A stretch of DNA of 64,000 bases from Woeseiaceae bacterium (GCA_041602775.1 JBFIFN010000002.1:64200-128199); one strand, 5' to 3'. Shown: positions 19,930 to 30,013, numbered from the stretch's first letter. Made by a program: numbers and translations. Notes: generated from the letters alone by a model not told the origin.

Positions 19930-20715
19930 TCAGGCCTTGCCCCCCGCGTGCGATCGGTAAGCCATGGCCAGCATGATAGCGCCCGCCACGATCATCGGCA
20001 CGGTCAGCACCTGGCCCATCGTGATCCAGCCCTGCGACAGGTAGCCGAGGTGGGCGTCGGGCACGCGGTAGAACTCGATCAAGAAGCGAAACACGCCGTA
20101 GAGGAGCAGGAAGAGCCCCGACAGGGCCATGTAGGGCCGGGGACTTGCCGAGTACCACCACAGGATGGCAAACAGCACGAAGCCCTCGAGGGCCGACTCA
20201 TACAGCTGCGAGGGATGCAGGACCTGCCCGTCAACGAGGAATCCCCAGGGGACATCGGTCGGCTTGCCCCACAGCTCGCCGTTGATGAAATTGCCGATAC
20301 GGCCGAAACCGAGGCCCAGCGGCACGAGCGGCGCGACGAAGTCGGTCATGCGCCACATCGTGTGGCCCAGCTTGCGGCCATACAGCCACATGGCGATCAG
20401 CACGCCCGCAAGTCCGCCGTGAAAGGACATGCCGCCCTCGGTGATCCGGAACAGGTAAAACGGGTCCGAGAACAGCTGGTCCGTGCCGTAGAAGAGCGCG
20501 TAGCCGATGCGCCCGCCCAGGATGACGCCCAGCATCGAGTAGAATACGAGGTCGTCGACCTGGTCCGGTGTCACCGGCGAGTCCGTCCGCCTGCAGCGGC
20601 GCCTGGCGAGCCACCACGCTAGCACGAAACCGACCACGTACATCAGCCCGTACCAGCGAATCTTGAGGAACCCGATCGAAAAGATTACCGGATCGATCTC
20701 CGGGTATGTCAGCAT
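19930..20715 (-). CDS. lgt: Prolipoprotein diacylglyceryl transferase
   Basis: The internal ATG (complement of 20713-20715) gives [26 protein letters not shown].. Also [13 protein letters not shown]. lgt-thyA linkage. Confidence 0.92.
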
Positions 20716-20761
20716 GGCGTCCCGCTTAGCATCCAGGAAGACCGGTATCATAGAGCAATCC

Positions 20762-22801
20762 ATGTCGAATCGCCTCGCCAAAGAATCCAGCCCCTATTTG
20801 CTGCAACACGCCGACAATCCCGTCGACTGGTACCCGTGGGGTGACGAGGCCTTCGCGCTGGCCGCGGCGTCCGGCAAACCCGTGTTGCTGTCGATCGGCT
20901 ACTCCGCGTGCCACTGGTGCCACGTCATGGCGCACGAGTCCTTCGAGGACGATGCGACAGCGGCGCTCATGAACACACTGTTTGTCAACGTCAAGGTCGA
21001 CCGCGAAGAGCGCCCGGACATCGACAAGATCTACCAGACAGCGCACCAGTTGATTACCCAGCGCCCGGGGGGCTGGCCGCTGACGATGTTTCTCGACGGC
21101 GACGATCGCAGACCGTTCTTCGGCGGCACCTATTTTCCCCGGGACGCGCGTTACGGCATGCCCGCATTCGGCGACCTGCTGCAGAAGATCGCCGACCACT
21201 ACGCACAGAATCGAGACGACGTCCGCGCCCAGGGCGAGCGCATGCTCGAGGTCTTCGCGCAGCTCGATCCGGCGCCCGCGGACGACATCGCTTTTTCCGC
21301 GGAGCCGCTGGCCAAGGCGCGCGCCACGCTGGCGCAGAATTTCGACCGTGAGTACGGCGGCTTCGGCGGCGCACCGAAGTTTCCCCACCCGACGACCATC
21401 GATCGCATGCTGCGCCACTGGCGCAGCACGGTCGCCGATGCCGAACCCGACGTCGAGGCCCTGTACATGGCCGCGCTGACGCTCGCGCGCATGGCCGAAG
21501 GCGGCCTGTTCGACCACCTGGGCGGCGGCTTCTACCGCTACTCGGTCGACCGCTACTGGCAGATTCCGCATTTCGAGAAAATGCTCTATGACAACGGACC
21601 GCTGCTCGCCGTGTACGCGCAAGCGGCCATAGCGACGGGGGAAAGGCTGTTCGCCGACACGGCCAACGCGACGGCCGACTGGATGCTCGCCGACATGCAG
21701 GATGCCAACGGCGGGTTCTACGCGACCCTCGATGCCGACTCCGAAGGCCATGAGGGCCTCTACTACCTGTGGGAGCCCGACGAGGTTCGCACGATCCTCG
21801 GCGACGACTACGCGGTATTCGCGCGCCGCTTCGGGCTCGACCAGGCTGCGAATTTCGAAGGCCGATGGCACCTCACCGTGCGGCAGGAAATCAGCGACGA
21901 CGAGATAGCGGCGATCGGCAGGGCGAAAACAGCGCTCCTCGAGCGTCGCGCGATACGCGTCCCGCCCGGGCGCGATGAAAAACAGCTGACGTCGTGGAAC
22001 GCGCTGGCCATTCGCGGCCTTGCCATCGCAGGACGCACGCTCGGCCGGCCCGAACTCGTCGACGCGGCCGCGAGCGCCGTCGACTTCCTCGGCGCCAGGA
22101 TGTTCCGCGACGGACGTCTTTTCGCCAGCTTCAAGGACGGCGAGGCGAAGTTCATGGCCTACCTCGACGACCACGCGTTCCTGCTCGACGCCCTGCTCGA
22201 ATTACTGCAGGCGCGCTGGAATTCAGCGCATCTTGCGCTCGCGGAACAGGTGGCCGGGATAATGTTGCGGCATTTCCAGGACCGCGATAGCGGCGGCTTC
22301 TGGTTCACGGCCGATGACCACGAGCAGCTCATTCATCGCAGCAAGCCCTTCGCTGACGAAGCGGTGCCCTCCGGCAATGGCGTCGCCGCGTTTGCGCTGC
22401 AGCGCCTCGGCTTCCTGCTCGGCGAAACTCGCTACCTGGACGCGGCCGAGTCGGCGCTGAGCGCCGCCTGGCGCGCCATGGACGAGTATCCGCACGGCCA
22501 CGTGAGCCTGCTCGCAGCGCTCGAGGAATACCTCGAGCACCCCGAAATTGTCGTCATCCGCGGACCGCAGGACGAGATCGACAGCTGGCGGGATTCAGCG
22601 GCAAAAGTGTATGCGCCGAGGCGCCTCGTATATGCCATCCCCGCCGATGAAACCGGGCTGCCCGGCGCGTTGGCCGACCGCGCCCCGCTCGACGGCCAGA
22701 CCGTGGCCTATCGCTGCCTGGGTACGCACTGCGAAATGCCGGTAACGACGTGGGAAGCGCTCGCGGCGCAGCTCGCGAGCAGCGAGACGCCTCAGGGATA
22801 G
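20762..22801 (+). CDS. Thioredoxin-domain protein, DUF255/YyaL family (N-terminal Trx fold + alpha/alpha-toroid)
   Basis: ATG at 20762. Motifs [18 protein letters not shown] and [13 protein letters not shown], typical of the family. Confidence 0.85.
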
Positions 22802-23736
22802 GCTCTCAGCGTTGCACCCATCGTCGGCTGGACGCTGTTGCCGCGCGACGTGCGGAACCGTACCGGCAGGGACTCGACCCCCATCCCGAGGTTGCGCAGC
22901 ACCGCGAAATGCAGATGCGGGCCGCTCGTAAACCCCGTGTTGCCCGAATCGGCAAGGTACTCGCCGGCGACGACGCGGTCCCCTGGCGCGACACGGATGG
23001 TATTCCAGTTGAGGTGCGCATAGACGGCATAGGTGCCATCGTCGTGCAGGATTCGTACGAGATTGGCGAGGTCCGCGTAGCGCGCCTCGTCCGGGCCGCC
23101 ACTGAAGTTCGTCGTTGCGACGTCGAAGACGATACCGTCGCGTGCCGCAACGACATCCGTGCCGACGGGCATTGCGAAATCGACGGCGTGCATGCTGTCC
23201 CGGGTGCGGTGCGTCGTCGAGACCGGATACGCCTGCGTCACGTCATAGGCCGCGCCGACCGCGTATGGCAGGCGGTAGGTCGCGTCGTCGTCGGGCTGTG
23301 CGGCCGGGTCGCCGGGGACCAATTCGAAGCGATAGCGGACGAACGGCGCTGCGACGTTGCCCATCACCGGCAGTTCCAGCAGCACGAGATCCGAGCGAGC
23401 GGGCACGAGCCAGCGCAGGTCGTCATCCGGATGGGGATAGTCGACGCCCTCGATACTGTCGAAAACGAGACCGACCTCGATGGGCGCGTGGAAGCGATTG
23501 CTCGCCACGATGCGAACGCCCGAACCCGTGAACGAGTCCGCCACGCTCAGCCCTCCGGGTTCCGCGCGCCGCCCCAGGGGTTGCGCCTCGGCACGGCTGC
23601 GGTCGGCCGGCGGACGGTCGGAGTAAATCCACTCACCGTCATCGCCACGATACTTGTACAGCGTCTGGGCGGACGCGAGGCCGCACAGCAACAGCGTCGA
23701 TACGATCGTCAGAACCAGCGTGCGGTCAGGAACCAA
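22792..23736 (-). CDS. Secreted M23-family metallopeptidase with N-terminal DUF4124-like segment
   Basis: Signal peptide. [18 protein letters not shown] (DUF4124-like). M23 metal ligands [11 protein letters not shown] and [15 protein letters not shown]. Its start overlaps the upstream protease gene by 11 nt. Confidence 0.85.
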
Positions 23737-26524
23737 GGTCCACGCGCCTCCAGCCGCTTGCAGTGCGCTGAATCTCGTAGGCCGGCCAGTACTGCGTATC
23801 CAGCTTCAGCGTTATGACCTCGGCCGTATCGTTCCAGGATACGGTCTTGAGCCGCACCGAATCACGATGATCGAGATCCTTGACGGCGTCGATGAAAGCC
23901 TGCAGATCGGGAGTCGGCTGTTCATTGACCTCAACCACCCGCCGGCCTGCCCAGAGCCCATAACGCGTGGCCGGGGAGCCGTAGCTGAAGTAAGCAACGT
24001 AGACGCCTTCGGTCGAGACGCCGCGCTGCGCCGCCATGGCGCGGTGAGGCTCCTGGATCAGGGCGCCGGCCCAGGAAATCGCGCGCGCGATGCCGCCGCC
24101 ATCCAGCGCGGCCGTCCTGACGGGAATCTCGAGGACCTCGCCGTTACGCCAGACGGTCACCCTGACCTCCGGTTTCTGCACGGCATGTTCGAGTTCTCTG
24201 AAGGACGTTACGACGTCGCCGTCGATGGCGAGGACCATGTCGCCGTTCTCGAGCAGTTCGGATGCCGCCGAGCCCGCGACGAGCCGAGTCACGGAGAGCG
24301 CGCGACGGCGCACCGGGTTGTTCTCCTCCAGTCGCCTGACCCAGTCCTCGTCGACGCCCATCTTGCGGGCGGCAAACAGGGGCGCATAGACGAACTCGGC
24401 CTCGAGCGAATAGAACGGTCTGCCTTCGCGGACCGTGTTCACGAATTGCTGCGCCACCTCGGAGCCGACACCGCGGTTGAATTGCGCGGACTCCCCGCCG
24501 CTCTGCGTGGCAAAACTCGACCACGTGGCCAGCACTTCGCCGCGCTTGTTCACGATGACGCCATCGACGTCACCGGGCGCGTTGACGAGCGAAATGCCTT
24601 CGATGTTGCTGTCGCGAAAGCGCAGCGTGCGCGACAGCGGCAGGACAAGGGGATCGACCGATGCCACCGTGCTCTCCTGGTGGACGAGCTGATGGTCACC
24701 CTTGATGCCAACGACCCAGACCTTCTCTCCGGGGCGCAGCGTTGCGGTATTGAACGTGGCAGCGCGCACCGGCGTGCTGCCGATGCTGGCGGGATCGTAG
24801 GAAACGATCGCGTAATTGTGCAGCGGGTGCAGCTGCTCGATCTTTCCTTTCACCTCCAGTGATCCGGCAAAGGTAATCGACACGTCGCCAATCGCGATGG
24901 GCACCGTATTACGGTCCACGAGCACGTAGCCGCGCTCCCTGTCGACAACCAGGCCCGTGCCGTAGTAATGGCGATCGGCCACGCCCGACAGCGTGTACGG
25001 AAGGTCGAATGTGACGACGACCAGCGACGGCGCGATCGCGTTGACGATGGGATCCTTGTACTTCGTCAGCCGCGTGCTGCCTTGTTCGGGCGCCGCCGCC
25101 GCAGGGCCCTCGGCGAGTTCGCGGCATGGCCAGACGCCCAGCGCATCGTCGCGCGAGCAGCGGCGCGACGGAAACCAGGTACGGTCCATTTCCAGGAGGC
25201 GAACCACGGGGTTTTGCGGGTTCTCCATCGTCACGTACCGCAGTAGCGCGCGCTCACCGTTCGCCAGGCCCGCCAGCGCCGCCTCGAAATCGTCCAGCGT
25301 GGCTGTCGGCTCACCGCCCACCTCGATGATGACAGCGCCCCTCGGTACGGCTGCCCGCGACAGCAGGTAACCCGGGTTGGCGACGTAGATACCGCTGGCC
25401 GGCCGGTTGTAATGCCGCGCCTGCTGGTAGGAGAGCTGGTTGACGACGGCGTCGCCGAACTCGAGATACTCGTCGGGCGTAATGGCATGCAGGTCCGCGA
25501 CCTCGATACGGGCCTCGATGCGGCGACCGCCCCGCTCGACCGTCACGTCGATCTCCTGGCCGACGTGGTTGTCCAGGATGGCAGCCAGCGGCACGAATTC
25601 GGTCACGAGTTCGTCGTTGACGCGGATCAGGATATCGCCCGGCGAGAGCACGCCGGCGGCCGGCGACTCCGGAATGACCTGCTCCACGGTCAGCATGCCA
25701 GTCTGGTCCGGGTAGCGGCGTCGCGCAAGCGTCTCCGACGCCTCGGTCAGCCCCAGGCGGCGCAGTTCGTCAAAGGGCTCGCTGCGGAACGTCGTCTGCA
25801 GGGTACCGCGCGTGACCGGCTCCCCGTTCTGCAATTTGCGCAACGCGCGCTCGACGCGGTCGAGCGGCAGGAAGAAGCTGCTGGCCGCCGAGCTGTTGGC
25901 GCCGGCGTTGAGCGCCACGACCTCGCCGTCGATATTGACCACCGGCGATCCCGACGATCCGCCAGAGGTGCCGGAGGCAGCCTGCAGGTAGAAGGTATTG
26001 AAGTCGTTGTACTTCCCGCGACCGTATTCCGGGGCCTTGCGATCGAGGCGCGCGATGGTGCCGGCGAGAATCGACAGCTGCTCGCCGGCATCGTTGCCGA
26101 TGACGCGGATCTCCTTGCCGATCCCGGCGCCGCCGGGTGCGAGCGGCAGCTCGACGGGCTCGATGTACCTCAGCGCCGCAGGGTCGTAGCGAAAGAAACC
26201 GAAGTCGTGCACCGGGTCGCGATACACAGGCGTGAGTTCGACTTCCTCGTTGTTGCGGAACACGGCTTCGGCGATGACCGGACCGGGGGTGACGACGTGT
26301 CGATTCGTCAGAATGAGGCCGCGCTCGGCGTCGACGACAAAACCCGTCGCCTGGCTCGAGGTGTTCCATTCGGTGTCGAACGCGCGCGTGGAATCGACGC
26401 GAATGGACACTACACCGGACGAAATCCGCTCGAGCGTCTGGGTCCACGCCGGCTCTTCTGCCGCCGATGTCGGTGAGGCAACGATGAGCGCAACGAGCGC
26501 CGCGATAATCCTGCTCTGAATCAT
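23726..26524 (-). CDS. Nma111-like duplicated HtrA-type serine protease with multiple PDZ-like domains (932 aa)
   Basis: Signal peptide. The first half carries the trypsin-fold triad contexts TNRHVV, VHDFGFF and GTSGGSSGSPVV. PDZ-like segments are present (..VIPESPAAGVLSPGDILIRVN.., ..AAVPRGAVIIEVGG..). The second half repeats the architecture with substituted catalytic positions. Confidence 0.8.
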   Translation of the reverse strand: MIQSRIIAALVALIVASPTSAAEEPAWTQTLERISSGVVSIRVDSTRAFDTEWNTSSQATGFVVDAERGLILTNRHVVTPGPVIAEAVFRNNEEVELTPVYRDPVHDFGFFRYDPAALRYIEPVELPLAPGGAGIGKEIRVIGNDAGEQLSILAGTIARLDRKAPEYGRGKYNDFNTFYLQAASGTSGGSSGSPVVNIDGEVVALNAGANSSAASSFFLPLDRVERALRKLQNGEPVTRGTLQTTFRSEPFDELRRLGLTEASETLARRRYPDQTGMLTVEQVIPESPAAGVLSPGDILIRVNDELVTEFVPLAAILDNHVGQEIDVTVERGGRRIEARIEVADLHAITPDEYLEFGDAVVNQLSYQQARHYNRPASGIYVANPGYLLSRAAVPRGAVIIEVGGEPTATLDDFEAALAGLANGERALLRYVTMENPQNPVVRLLEMDRTWFPSRRCSRDDALGVWPCRELAEGPAAAAPEQGSTRLTKYKDPIVNAIAPSLVVVTFDLPYTLSGVADRHYYGTGLVVDRERGYVLVDRNTVPIAIGDVSITFAGSLEVKGKIEQLHPLHNYAIVSYDPASIGSTPVRAATFNTATLRPGEKVWVVGIKGDHQLVHQESTVASVDPLVLPLSRTLRFRDSNIEGISLVNAPGDVDGVIVNKRGEVLATWSSFATQSGGESAQFNRGVGSEVAQQFVNTVREGRPFYSLEAEFVYAPLFAARKMGVDEDWVRRLEENNPVRRRALSVTRLVAGSAASELLENGDMVLAIDGDVVTSFRELEHAVQKPEVRVTVWRNGEVLEIPVRTAALDGGGIARAISWAGALIQEPHRAMAAQRGVSTEGVYVAYFSYGSPATRYGLWAGRRVVEVNEQPTPDLQAFIDAVKDLDHRDSVRLKTVSWNDTAEVITLKLDTQYWPAYEIQRTASGWRRVDLGS

Positions 26525-26645: not shown

Positions 26646-28109
26646 TCAGTCCGGGACGTAGCGCAGGTCGAGTTCGCGCGCCGCCTTGACGTCGTCGAGA
26701 CGCCGCACGGGCATCGTGTACGGTGCTTCCTTGTACTGCACGCCTTCTTCCCGCGCAGCTCGGGCGATGTCGATCATCGCTGCGACGAAATTATCGAGCG
26801 TCTCCTTGCTCTCGGTCTCCGTCGGCTCGATCAGCAGGCACTCCGGCACGAGCAGCGGGAAGTAAGTCGTCGGCGCATGGAAATTCCGATCCAGCAGCGC
26901 CTTGGCCATGTCCATGGCCGTCAGGTGCAGTTCCTTCGCCTCGCGCTTCAGCGTCACGATGAACTCGTGGCTGGCACGACGTTCCGGGAACGCGAGTTCG
27001 AAGCCGGCATCGCGCAGCTTCGCCATCAGGTAGTTGGCATTCAGCGTCGCGTACTCGGCGACACGCTCCATGCCGTCCCGGCCCAGCATGCGCATGTAGA
27101 CGTAGGCGCGCAGCAGCACGCCGGCGTTGCCCATGAACCCCGACAGGCGCCCTATGGACTGCGGAATGTCGTTCTCTGCAGCCCAGTCATAGAAGTCCGA
27201 GCCATCGACTTCGGTCTTCTTGACGACCGGGATGGGCAGGAAGGGCAGCAGGCGGTCATTGACGCCTACGGCACCGGAACCCGGCCCGCCACCGCCGTGC
27301 GGCGTGGAGAATGTCTTGTGGAGATTCATGTGGATGACGTCGAAGTCCATGTCACCCGGTCGAACCTTGCCGAGAATCGCGTTCAGGTTGGCCCCGTCGT
27401 AGTAGAGCAAGCCGCCCGCGTCGTGAACACGATCGGCGATTTCCTTGATATGCCGCTCGAATACGCCCAGCGTCGAGGGGTTGGTCAGCATGATGCCCGC
27501 CGTCTGCGGCCCGAGCGCGGCCTCCAGGGCATCCATATCGACGTCGCCGTCGGGCCCGGTCGGAATCTCCCTGACGGCGCAGCCGCACATCGTCGCCGTC
27601 GCCGGGTTGGTACCGTGGGCGGCGTCCGGCACGATGATCTCCGTGCGTTCCGTATCGCCGCGCGAACGATGATAGGCCATGATCATCGCGACACCGGCGA
27701 GTTCGCCCTGTGCCCCCGCCATCGGCGTCAGCGAGACGCCCTGCATGCCCGTTACTTCCTTGAGCATCTGCTGCAGCTCGTACATGCAGGAGAGAAATCC
27801 CTGGCCGTGCGTTACCGGTCCCAGCGGATGGCGGCCGGCGAATTCGGGCAACAGGGCGAGCGCGTTGCAGGCCCGCGGGTTGTATTTCATCGTGCACGAG
27901 CCGAGCGGATAGAACTGCGTATCGATCGAGAAGTTCTTCCGCGACAGGCGCGTGAAGTGCCTCACCGCCTGCAGTTCCGACACCTCGGGCAGACGCGGCC
28001 TGTCCGTCCGCAAAAACTGCGCGGGGATCGACGTTTCGCCAGCCTCGGCCGGAGCCTGTGCGAATGCGCGACGGCCGTTGCGCGATTTTTCGAATATCAG
28101 TTCGCTCAT
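26646..28109 (-). CDS. gcvPB: Glycine dehydrogenase (decarboxylating) subunit 2
   Basis: PLP-Lys context [16 protein letters not shown]. Two-subunit P-protein arrangement. Confidence 0.95.
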
Positions 28110-28136
28110 GTGTTCTTCCCGGGCCAGTCGGCCCTC

Positions 28137-28667
28137 CTACGTATCGATGTCTATGCCCAGCGCACGGAAAGCGGCCTTGTAGTCAGGCTCGGCGCCGATG
28201 TCCTCGATGTGCTCGCGATGCACGATCGAATTGTTCTCGTCGATGACCATGACGGCCGGCGAATACATGCCCGCCAGCGGACCGTCGAGGATCAATACGC
28301 CGTAGTTTTCGCCGAAACCGGCATGACGAATCGCGGAAAGCCCTTCGACGCATTGCAGGTCGTGCGCCTTGCGAAAGCGGCTGTGCGCGAACGGCAGGTC
28401 GTAGGTCACGACCAGCATGGCCAGGTCCTTGCATCCCGCGGCATACTCGTCGAAACGAATCACGCTGCGCGCAAAAACTTCGGTATCCACGCTCACGCCG
28501 ATGAACATGATCTTTCGCAGTCCGGCAAAATTGGCGAGCGACACGTTCTGCAGCTTGGTGTTCACCAGGGATACATCCGGCGCATACGTGCCGATACGCG
28601 GCAGCTCACCGTACGTCTGGTAGCTCGTGTTGTCGTAGCGAATCTTCGCAACAATCGTGCCCGACAT
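28137..28667 (-). CDS. Thiol peroxidase (Tpx)-like protein lacking both catalytic cysteines
   Basis: Start ATG (complement of 28665-28667) overlaps the gcvPA TGA (ATGA). Tpx-like throughout (..DLPFAHSRF.., ..DGPLAG..AVMVIDENN.., ..EPDYKAAF..). However it has SVDTEVF where Tpx has SIDTGVC, and SRFRK where Tpx has SRFCG. Confidence 0.8.
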   Translation of the reverse strand: MSGTIVAKIRYDNTSYQTYGELPRIGTYAPDVSLVNTKLQNVSLANFAGLRKIMFIGVSVDTEVFARSVIRFDEYAAGCKDLAMLVVTYDLPFAHSRFRKAHDLQCVEGLSAIRHAGFGENYGVLILDGPLAGMYSPAVMVIDENNSIVHREHIEDIGAEPDYKAAFRALGIDIDT

Positions 28668-30013
28668 CAGACCATGGCCTCCCGGAAGGCCGCAACGCAT
28701 CGGTCGATGTCGTCATCGGTCTTCGTTTCCGTTGCGCAAACGAGCAGTGCATCGGTCCCGGCGTATTCGGTCAGGTCGAAGCCGCCGAGGATGTTCTTCC
28801 CCGCGAGTGCCGCGAGGACAGGCGCCACCGGGCGATCGAACCTGAGCGCCACCTCGTGGAAAAACGGCCCGCCGTACAGGCGCTCGATGCCGTCGATCGC
28901 GCACAGGCCATCGACGAGGCGCGTCGTGTTGGCGTGCGACCGCCGGGCCACGCGTGCAATACCATCGAAGCCGAGCAGCGACATGTAGATCGTCGCTGCG
29001 GTCACCATGAGGCCCTGGTTGGTGCAGATATTGGACGTTGCTTTGGTGCGGCGAATGTGCTGTTCGCGCGCCTGCAGTGTGAGTGCAAAACCGGGATTGC
29101 CGTCGAGATCGGTCGTGCGGCCGACGATGCGTCCCGGCATCTGTCGCACGTGCTGTTGCTTGCACGTCATGTAGCCGAAGTACGGCCCGCCCGACGACAG
29201 GGGCACACCCAACGGCTGTCCCTCACCGCAGGCGATATCGACGCCGTCGGCGCCCCAGTGTCCCGGCGCTTTCATGAGGGCGAGTGACGTCGGGTTGGCG
29301 ATACCGATCGCCAGCGCGCCTTGCGCGTGGGCCCAGTCGGTCAGGCGGTCGACGTCCTCGAGCGTACCCGGGAAAGCAGGCTGCTGCATAACGACACCGA
29401 CGGGTTTGCGGCCGTCAGGCAGCTCGTCGAACGCCACGTTGCCGGAGGCGGGGTCCTGTGGCAGCCATTCGAAGGTCAGTCCCTGCCCCCCGGCGATGGC
29501 CTCGGCTACCTTTTCGTAGACAGGATTCACGCCCGGAGCCAGCAGGATGAGGTTCGTCTTGACCTTGCGATTGGCGCGCACGGCCATGAGCGCGGCTTCG
29601 GCGAGACCCGAAGCGCCGTCGTACAGCGACGCGTTGCTGACATCGAGCCCGGTCAGCTCCGTGATCATCGTCTGGTATTCATAGATCGTCTGCAGCGTGC
29701 CCTGGCTTGCCTCCGCCTGGTACGGCGTGTAGGCGCTGTAATACTCGCCACGCGTCGCTATATCCCAGACAGCCGTCGGGATGTGGTGCTCGTAGGCGCC
29801 GGCCCCGATGAAGGAGAGGGGTGCGCCGTCCCTGGCGGCACGCTCGCGCATCAGGCGCGAGATTTCCATCTCGCCGAGCGCCTCGGGGATGGCATCGAGG
29901 TGTTCGATACGAAGTTCTTTCGGAATTTCGTCGAACAGGTCCTCGATGGACTCGGCGCCAATGGCATCGAGCATCTCCCGGGTGTCTTTCTCCGTGTGCG
30001 GAATAAATGGCAT
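28667..30013 (-). CDS. gcvPA: Glycine dehydrogenase (decarboxylating) subunit 1
   Basis: Typical GcvPA N-terminus [19 protein letters not shown].. 448 aa. Adjacent to gcvH. Confidence 0.95.

Follow-up and report, generated by a model that had tools for sequence, protein, structure and literature searches.

A predicted exported tandem HtrA protease of the Nma111/DEG7 type in Woeseiaceae and its lineage-specific M23 peptidase neighbour

Background

The tandem architecture in which an active HtrA module is followed by an inactive one has so far been regarded as characteristic of fungi and plants, where it is attributed to a duplication in their ancestor. Nma111p of yeast is nuclear according to the literature quoted in passages of PMC3194040, and Arabidopsis DEG7 trimerises through its degenerate protease domain (Schuhmann et al. 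2011, PMC3194040). In our literature search we found no paper on bacterial members; the papers found treat the family from eukaryotes only. Here we analysed a window of 64,000 nucleotides from a marine-sediment bacterium of the family Woeseiaceae, which encodes a double-length HtrA protease with an N-terminal signal peptide. A first-pass annotation of this DNA had proposed an Nma111-type protein acting together with the product of an adjoining M23 peptidase gene.

Results

The protease gene (P0001) extends from 23726 to 26524 on the minus strand, on which all features described below are also located, and its assignment is based on the open reading frame and translation (932 aa), the Pfam architecture and homology. 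Domain borders were obtained by scanning pieces of the protein separately with Pfam, which recovered two Trypsin_2 stretches, two PDZ_1 and four PDZ_6 matches; the resulting order is signal peptide, active HtrA protease, PDZ, PDZ_1, a second protease fold lacking the triad, PDZ and PDZ_1. The Sec-type signal peptide (residues 1-21; 26462..26524), read by eye from the translation, has a hydrophobic core, and TSA followed by AEE marks the probable cleavage site; residues 1-22 have low pLDDT in the structural model. The active Trypsin_2 domain (residues 59-205; 25910..26350; E 8e-25) is followed by PDZ domain 1 (residues 274-342; 25499..25705; PDZ_6/PDZ_2 matches) and by PDZ domain 2, which is of the PDZ_1 type (PF12812; residues 347-419; 25268..25486; E 2e-15). 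The linker between the halves contains the only two cysteines of the protein, C456 and C467 (25124..25159). The second half comprises the degenerate protease domain (residues 522-666; 24527..24961; Trypsin_2 E 3e-5, internal repeat), PDZ domain 3 (residues 737-802; 24119..24316; PDZ/PDZ_2/PDZ_6 matches) and PDZ domain 4, again of the PDZ_1 type (residues 816-886; 23867..24079; E 3e-9). An AlphaFold model of the monomer, calculated from a 39-sequence alignment, reached a pLDDT of 91.8 and a pTM of 0.87, with both halves folded. Open reading frames antisense to the locus had no match in Pfam, and an Rfam search of the region matched no family.

Residues 60-458 and 523-920 can be aligned internally with 24% identity (E 2e-20); this similarity is far beyond chance, and the two halves are homologous. 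All 42 aligned relatives (23 from bacteria, 19 from eukaryotes) retain the triad of the first domain (H76, D107, S191), and among 122 full-length relatives the His is present in 119 and the Asp in 120. The second Trypsin_2 match spans the full length of the model but scores just below the cut-off (25.1 versus 27.6 bits), and the domain is modelled with high confidence as a beta-rich fold. Here N539 replaces the His, N570 replaces the Asp, and the Ser loop is shortened and lacks any Ser, Thr or Cys. In the 122 full-length relatives, the His of the second domain is found in only three proteins, and the Asp position is occupied by Asn in 99. The dead domain carries an HPxHN motif common to bacteria and eukaryotes, and Asn takes the place of the Asp in 20 of 23 bacterial and 16 of 19 eukaryotic sequences. 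In a tree of the halves, every N-terminal half is separated from every C-terminal half with a support of 100. Duplication and inactivation are common to the bacterial and eukaryotic members and thus each took place a single time, before these branches parted. The earlier description of a 932-aa double HtrA protein with a degenerate second repeat and four PDZ domains is therefore supported by Pfam, the internal repeat and the model, and HMM parsing did not give a single protease domain with an unrelated C-terminus. The first triad is intact as described, and on alignment the second is not, its catalytic residues being replaced or lost; the reported His to Asn exchange corresponds to N539. For the reported Ser to Val exchange, loss of the nucleophile is certain, but the assignment of Val hinges on gap placement.

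By its sequence, the 932-aa protein is related to yeast Nma111 and to DEG7 of plants over its full length. Named Nma111/DEG7 proteins of fungi, oomycetes, choanoflagellates and plants match it over residues ~25-925 with 37-48% identity (E 1e-145 to 1e-228), among them S. pombe SPBC1685.05 (P0253; 37%, query 26-924), Martiniozyma Nma111 (P0264; 37%), homologues from Aphanomyces (41%) and Diaphanoeca (42%), and a DEG7-type protein of Stephania (P0156; 48%). The active protease domain is 59-66% identical to its eukaryotic counterparts. In a structure-based atlas, the model of a bacterial cluster and an Ascomycota Nma111 cluster superimpose with TM scores of 0.95/0.90. Tandem HtrA proteins of this type (MEROPS S1C) comprise about 900-1100 aa in two homologous modules, and the window protein agrees with this in size and build. 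The proposed Nma111-type identity is thus confirmed by full-length homology, architecture and a dead second domain with the same substitutions.

The bacterial branch comprises 974 clusters at 50% identity with E<=1e-30, and automatic annotation has already named several bacterial clusters "NMA111 family". The view of this architecture as poorly studied in bacteria agrees with our literature search, but it can hardly be called unusual, as the branch is very large and already automatically named; within this large and unstudied branch of bacterial proteins, the protease of the window is a genuine but unremarkable representative. Nearly all bacterial relatives possess a signal peptide, which the eukaryotic relatives lack, and cysteines at both sites of the pair are present in 22 of 23 bacterial and 0 of 19 eukaryotic relatives; C456 and C467 may thus form a disulfide bond. 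The intracellular site (nucleus or chloroplast) of described Nma111/DEG7 members is not matched by the protease of the window, with its signal peptide and bacteria-only Cys pair. As this site characterises the members described so far and not the fold, the protease marks a distinct exported bacterial branch. The gene is present in 60 of 61 Woeseiaceae genomes, representing 16 of 16 genera, and identity (49-85%) tracks relatedness. The same genome also carries two ordinary HtrA genes.

The adjoining gene (P0002; 22792..23736), recognized from its open reading frame, Pfam and a structural model, encodes a DUF4124/beta-sandwich/M23 metallopeptidase of 314 aa. Sequence reading places its TTG start at 23736, 11 nt inside the 3' end of the protease gene (overlap in the stop region, 23726..23736), with GGAGG 10 nt upstream. 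The overlap described in the first-pass annotation thus holds, given this TTG, which is the sole start giving a signal peptide. The DUF4124 segment (residues 15-52; 23581..23694; E 1.8e-6, 28.5 bits versus a cut-off of 22) and the M23 catalytic region (residues 176-282; 22891..23211; E 5e-20, 71.9 bits versus 28.7) flank a middle beta-sandwich domain with no Pfam match. The model (pLDDT 82) shows a confident N-terminal beta domain preceding the catalytic domain, and Foldseek matches to ShyA, LytM, lysostaphin and LasA place the protein in the M23 fold. H176, D186, H241, H274 and H276 are invariant, as judged from alignment columns in 62 orthologues and alignment to LytM. The canonical HxxxD histidine position (182) is unconserved (R/Y/Q/M in orthologues), and H176, ten residues before the Asp, is found in 62 of 62 orthologues.

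The M23 gene is tightly packed against the protease gene and probably co-transcribed with it. Contigs from RNA libraries (sediment, marine) at 80-90% likeness cover both genes, though not necessarily on one transcript; these contigs derive from relatives, may include DNA carry-over, and hint at expression there. In two surveys of Woeseiaceae, an M23 gene was located immediately downstream of the protease in 27 of 29 and 39 of 45 loci, and the same arrangement was found in L131, one more family-level relative. Such linkage was seen in only two of 32 sister-group loci with adequate flank and in none of 18 further loci from Gammaproteobacteria. The gene order at this site in Steroidobacteraceae is gcvPB-(dgkA)-protease-sua5. 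At the class level, the protease and the M23 gene were detected in 20 and 25 of 400 genomes, respectively, but only four contain both, and of these, one has them unlinked and one has a weak partial M23 match. The M23 gene is thus a partner of the protease only within Woeseiaceae and not of the family in general. The suggested pair of protease and peptidoglycan hydrolase is accordingly supported only in part: the check for co-occurrence revealed conserved linkage in most Woeseiaceae loci, but no conserved linkage outside the family.

Discussion

With a probability of roughly 80%, we consider 23726-26524 to encode an exported, ATP-independent serine protease of the Nma111/DEG7 branch, next to which the M23 gene is a Woeseiaceae-specific addition to the slot rather than a general partner. 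In this protein, an active N-terminal HtrA module (protease, PDZ and PDZ_1-type PDZ) is fused to a homologous module lacking the three catalytic residues. It would be exported, presumably to the periplasm, although it might also be secreted, and by analogy with other HtrA proteins it could act as an oligomer in protein quality control, either degrading unfolded proteins of the envelope or assisting them as a chaperone. The PDZ domains may recognise peptides of substrates or activators, trimerisation might be scaffolded by the dead protease domain as in Arabidopsis DEG7, and the bacteria-specific signal peptide and Cys pair may adapt the protease to an oxidising periplasm.

It is unlikely, though conceivable, that in Woeseiaceae both proteins form a two-enzyme envelope module, in which the co-transcribed M23 enzyme is a target of the tandem HtrA, to be processed, activated or degraded by it, and both jointly remodel the cell's own peptidoglycan. 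The protease might, for example, remove a DUF4124/beta-sandwich region by which the M23 enzyme is held latent, in the manner of LytM- or ShyA-type autoinhibition. The 11-nt overlap, with the Shine-Dalgarno sequence of the M23 gene located within the protease gene, the frequent downstream position of the M23 gene in Woeseiaceae and L131, the confident beta domain ahead of the catalytic domain, and the multi-domain autoinhibited ShyA, Csd3 and latent LytM as best full-length fold matches would fit such a module. As the linkage is kept in about 16 genera of Woeseiaceae and the junctions are very short or overlap, a real functional coupling is conceivable there. However, related genomes are non-independent and conservation within the family is also expected from simple inherited synteny; moreover, six Woeseiaceae loci lack a downstream M23 gene, the genes are unlinked outside the family, M23 homologues occur alone without an HtrA neighbour, and the phyletic patterns are nearly independent. 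Any functional coupling would thus be lineage-specific.

Still less probable is a role of both proteins as nutritional exoenzymes, which the cell would release into the sediment to break down protein from detritus and peptides of bacterial cell walls instead of acting on its own envelope. Both proteins carry signal peptides, and the M23 model also matches the secreted lytic enzymes LasA, lysostaphin and pseudoalterin; the long His-to-Asp spacing (H176-x9-D186) would likewise be in keeping with LasA-type enzymes. Such a role would also fit the proteolytic lifestyle proposed for Woeseiales by Hoffmann et al. 2020 (PMC7082342), who suggest growth on proteinaceous matter of detrital membranes and cell walls and report S1 peptidases in all genomes. 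Yet HtrA enzymes, among them those of eukaryotes in this branch, have unfolded proteins within a compartment as their substrates and do not serve in bulk digestion, no secretion-system signal or gene was found near the locus, and conservation of the protease is just as high in soil Steroidobacteraceae, where the M23 neighbour is absent; a regulated enzyme of the periplasm would accord better with the conserved Cys pair and the four regulatory PDZ domains. Eukaryotic DNA contaminating the metagenome bin, or a gene transferred from a eukaryote very recently, might be suspected from the high similarity to eukaryotic proteins, but is refuted: the gene is flanked by gcvPB and bacterial genes, the contig is long and of even GC content (~65%), nearly all Woeseiaceae genomes carry the gene with an identity that follows relatedness, synteny is conserved with Steroidobacteraceae, distant members reside in bacterial gene context, and the same DNA was recovered in several independent marine and sediment studies.

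For the origin of the exported tandem protease, we tentatively suggest, at somewhat less than even odds, that the active-plus-dead architecture originated in a bacterial protease exported to the periplasm and that eukaryotes acquired it later; an AU test on transfer between bacteria and eukaryotes did not settle the direction. If this is true, the branch with signal peptide and disulfide would be the ancestral form, and Nma111 and DEG7 would be intracellular derivatives.

Among known systems, DegP and DegQ (Do family, TIGR02037) share the periplasmic HtrA logic, and their single protease with two PDZ domains corresponds to one half of the window protein; their cages are its best PDB fold matches, each over one half (target-normalised TM 0.53-0.57). 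In contrast to these single modules, which oligomerise via the active protease domain, the window protein is doubled, and it shows a GSSGSP serine motif and PDZ_1-type PDZ domains; with 147.5 bits against TIGR02037 (cut-off 416.2) it falls outside the Do family. The M23 protein shares with LytM, ShyA and LasA the fold, the HxH motif (H274, H276), the catalytic His (H241) and the zinc-ligand Asp (D186), and with latent LytM and ShyA the possession of extra N-terminal domains. It differs in the unconserved HxxxD histidine, with an invariant His located ten residues before the Asp, and in its DUF4124 N-terminus and beta-sandwich middle domain. The closest counterparts of the protease are eukaryotic. 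Fungal Nma111p/Ynm3 (S. cerevisiae), compared via the Martiniozyma, Candida boidinii (P0243) and S. pombe proteins, agrees in length class, six-domain order, intact first triad, dead second domain with the same HPxHN-type substitutions and the PDZ_1 type of the second and fourth PDZ domains (identity of 37% over the entire length and of 59-63% in the active domain). Unlike the window protease, eukaryotic Nma111 proteins lack a Sec signal peptide and the conserved Cys pair and have long hydrophilic N-terminal extensions, and the apoptosis-related role of Nma111p cannot apply to a bacterial protein. Plant DEG7 (Arabidopsis At3g03380), compared via the Stephania protein, has the same architecture, and the latter's per-domain identity (38 to 66%) is the highest among the eukaryotes compared. 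DEG7 is reported from the chloroplast stroma with photodamaged PSII proteins as substrates, whereas the window protein is predicted to be exported and has no such substrates; by analogy, the trimerisation of DEG7 nevertheless offers the best available model of what its dead domain may do.

Architecture of the protease

The gene at 23726-26524 on the minus strand is an open reading frame whose translation, P0001, comprises 932 aa. Pfam scans of the entire protein and of separate pieces placed, after a predicted Sec-type signal peptide (residues 1-21), an active Trypsin_2 domain (59-205, E 8e-25), a PDZ domain (274-342) and a PDZ_1 domain (PF12812; 347-419), followed by a second Trypsin_2 domain matched over the full model length (522-666, E 3e-5) and by another PDZ (737-802) and PDZ_1 domain (816-886). 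The two halves of the protein are homologous to each other (60-458 versus 523-920, 24% identity, E 2e-20). This confirms the first-pass annotation, which had described an intact first protease, a degenerate second repeat and PDZ segments. The first catalytic triad is H76/D107/S191; in the second protease domain His is replaced by N539 and Asp by N570, and the serine loop, which lacks four residues in the BLAST alignment, is devoid of Ser, Thr and Cys. The earlier reading of a Ser to Val replacement thus stands as far as the loss of the serine is concerned, but the assignment of Val hinges on gap placement. AlphaFold2, run with a 39-sequence alignment, predicted two folded modules (pLDDT 91.8, pTM 0.87). 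Together, these features show P0001 to be a predicted exported protein with one putatively catalytically competent HtrA module and one dead module.

Relationship to eukaryotic Nma111/DEG7 proteins

An exhaustive HMMER search against 1.84 billion cluster representatives returned 974 clusters with E<=1e-30, including many full-length ones. Named eukaryotic members include S. pombe SPBC1685.05 (37% identity to P0001, query residues 26-924), a Martiniozyma 'Nma111 protein' (37%), proteins of Aphanomyces (41%) and the choanoflagellate Diaphanoeca (42%), and a plant DEG7-type protein of Stephania (48%); Candida boidinii, Albugo, the choanoflagellate Salpingoeca and chytrids are represented as well. 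The active protease domain of P0001 is 59-66% identical to these eukaryotic proteins, the dead one 27-38%. The Asn at the Asp position of the dead domain, which lies within a conserved HPxHN motif, occurs in 20 of 23 bacterial and 16 of 19 eukaryotic sequences, and judging from the alignments the dead-domain substitutions are common to both groups. The end-to-end homology to named eukaryotic proteins and these shared substitutions bear out the proposed Nma111-like nature of the protein; by homology, P0001 is genuinely part of the Nma111/DEG7 branch.

In a tree of the separated halves, all N-halves (active modules) were set apart from all C-halves (dead modules) with full support. Together with the shared dead-domain substitutions this indicates that duplication and inactivation were single events predating the split between the bacterial and the eukaryotic branch, and that, as far as phylogeny can tell, the tandem architecture has a single origin. 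When N- and C-halves, as paralogues, were used to root each other in a quick tree, the eukaryotes fell within bacterial diversity for both halves. In the AU test, however, a tree in which the bacterial N-halves are monophyletic was better by 21.7 log-likelihood units (p-AU 0.79), and we therefore dropped the nested placement and claim no direction of transfer, only the single origin of an architecture shared with eukaryotes. In a FastTree phylogeny of full-length proteins, which was not clean in its topology, 60 putatively bacterial rows formed one starred clade; outside of it fell a choanoflagellate/Albugo group and P0159/P0288, a distant homologue. The latter, a 920-aa protein encoded on a 29-kb metagenome contig and bacterial by its gene context, adjoins the choanoflagellate/Albugo group, a placement that hints at either more than one bacterium-eukaryote transition or an error in the tree.

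Distribution in bacteria

Source names attached to near-identical proteins and contigs point to a Woeseiaceae gammaproteobacterium as the organism. A full-length copy of the protease gene is present in 60 of 61 Woeseiaceae genomes covering all 16 genera. It was found in 20 of 400 gammaproteobacterial genomes sampled evenly across families; the counts of this class survey are minimum values, because one protease gene, cut at the contig start of locus L131, was missed. In a species-weighted sample of Pseudomonadota that left out the window's own genome, one of 400 genomes carried such a copy. The protease is thus a core gene in Woeseiaceae and patchy elsewhere. Bacterial clusters with a name derive from 'Deltaproteobacteria' MAGs, Alphaproteobacteria and Marinobacter, and the neighbour genes of distant family members are unrelated to those in the window and form ordinary bacterial gene contexts. 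The bacterial branch to which P0001 belongs is large, with many hundreds of sequence clusters, and unstudied; the literature searched contained no experiments on a bacterial Nma111/DEG7-type member. As the genome analyzed here also retains two ordinary HtrA genes, P0001 is an additional protease and not a replacement.

Gene order and transcription

The protease gene is directly preceded, on its own strand, by gcvPA, a redoxin/Tpx-like gene and gcvPB (26646-30013, minus strand), with a gap of 121 nt between gcvPB and the protease gene. A gcvP cluster precedes the protease in 72 of 98 loci, and the gcvPB-protease synteny is common to Steroidobacteraceae; it represents conserved gene order with no obvious functional link. 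A search for another conserved partner gene yielded only housekeeping synteny (gcvPB upstream, sua5 or a DUF255 gene downstream). Downstream of the protease follows the gene for P0002 (22792-23736, minus strand), an open reading frame translated into 314 aa. As the first-pass annotation had stated, this is an M23/DUF4124 gene starting 11 nt within the 3' end of the protease gene. Its start codon is TTG, preceded by GGAGG 10 nt on the 5' side, and the sole alternative in-frame start would lead to loss of the signal peptide. At 22792-22801 the 3' end of the M23 gene overlaps by 10 nt with that of a convergent DUF255/thioredoxin-domain gene (20663-22801, plus strand, 712 aa). The GC content is uniform at about 65%. 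Large antisense ORFs had no family match, Rfam gave none in the region, and a promoter/terminator scan found nothing exceeding the shuffled background.

None of the RNA runs contains the exact DNA of the window. Both genes are covered by contigs of relatives, 80-90% alike, in RNA libraries from sediment and marine sources, and one sediment contig of 2.7 kb (X19 record 1, window 22601-24416, about 80-85% alike) runs collinearly from within the DUF255 gene across the M23 gene to within the protease gene. This contig is unusable as operon evidence, because its extension over genes that converge points to carried-over DNA or to read-through; the RNA-library contigs show neither a single transcript nor freedom from DNA carry-over.

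The M23 neighbour and possible functions

P0002 combines a predicted signal peptide, a DUF4124 segment, a confidently predicted beta-sandwich (residues ~63-141) and an M23 domain (22891-23211, minus strand) in which H176, D186, H241, H274 and H276 are invariant in 62 orthologues. The position of the canonical HxxxD histidine (182) is occupied by R, Y, Q or M in this group; an invariant His is found ten residues before the invariant Asp, and both the HxH motif and the catalytic His are preserved. P0002 is probably a functional enzyme whose first histidine is non-canonical.

The proposal that both proteins act as a pair on the envelope was followed through gene neighbourhood and co-occurrence. 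The M23 gene is located immediately downstream of the protease in 27 of 29 Woeseiaceae loci of a first set and in 39 of 45 loci with sufficient flank and a protease at least 65% identical, but in only 2 of 32 loci of the sister group outside Woeseiaceae (mostly Steroidobacteraceae), where the slot reads gcvPB-(dgkA)-protease-sua5, and in none of 18 other gammaproteobacterial loci. Of the 400 genomes in the class survey, 25 carry the M23 type and 20 the protease; both are present in only four, of which one has them unlinked and another shows a weak partial M23 match. M23 homologues that stand alone are not flanked by any HtrA gene. A general M23 partnership is ruled out by these observations, and what stands is a stable, tightly packed pairing that is specific for Woeseiaceae rather than a general trait of the protease family. 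Locus L131 (L131:1-1106, contig start) comes from a genome, G074, that is coded as another family; there, the final 51 codons of an Nma111-type gene are followed directly by an M23 orthologue (56% identical).

Within Woeseiaceae the protease might control or activate the M23 hydrolase, as their adjacency would suggest; since relatives are not independent observations, inherited synteny accounts for the pairing as well as function does, and we consider such control unlikely. Less likely still is that both proteins are nutritional exoenzymes digesting detrital protein and cell walls, although such a role would suit the way of life that has been proposed for Woeseiales (Hoffmann et al. 2020, PMC7082342). 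By analogy with the HtrA family and Arabidopsis DEG7 (Schuhmann et al. 2011, PMC3194040), P0001 itself probably degrades or chaperones unfolded envelope proteins, gated by its PDZ domains and without requiring ATP, and the dead protease domain may, as suggested by DEG7, serve as an oligomerisation scaffold.

Comparison with known double and single HtrA proteases

Searches of a PDB copy by sequence and by fold found no full-length solved structure of the family, and P0001 matched single-module HtrAs only, each spanning one half; a 2017 cryo-EM paper on Nma111p reportedly exists. Against the DegP/DegQ model P0001 fails, scoring 147 bits with a cut-off of 416.

The Nma111/DEG7 double HtrA has been taken as a fungal and plant invention (PMC3194040, PMC3473262), and a plant Deg review restates the same architecture. 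Klim et al. 2018 remarked in passing that some bacterial proteins are nearer to yeast Nma111 than to human HtrA2, and a microbial PDZ-domain survey gave PDZ_1 as found in a few fungi and archaea. Bacterial clusters already bear the automatic annotation 'Pro-apoptotic serine protease NMA111 family', a label that misleads on the function of these genes. Here the double HtrA is a core gene, its product predicted to be exported, in a sediment family of global abundance. The roles of a dead protease domain and four PDZ domains would be easy to study in a bacterial member, which would also help to settle the source of the eukaryotic 'pro-apoptotic' protease; the M23 pairing is relevant to Woeseiaceae biology only.

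The bacterial branch is set apart by its predicted export and its cysteines. C456 and C467 (25124-25159, minus strand), the only cysteines of P0001, are located in the linker after PDZ2 and are kept in 22 of 23 bacterial relatives and in 0 of 19 eukaryotic ones; a disulfide specific to the periplasm, and diagnostic of the bacterial branch, probably links them. A Sec-type signal peptide is found at the N-terminus of almost every bacterial relative, whereas the eukaryotic Nma111/DEG7 relatives carry hydrophilic or transit-like extensions in its place.
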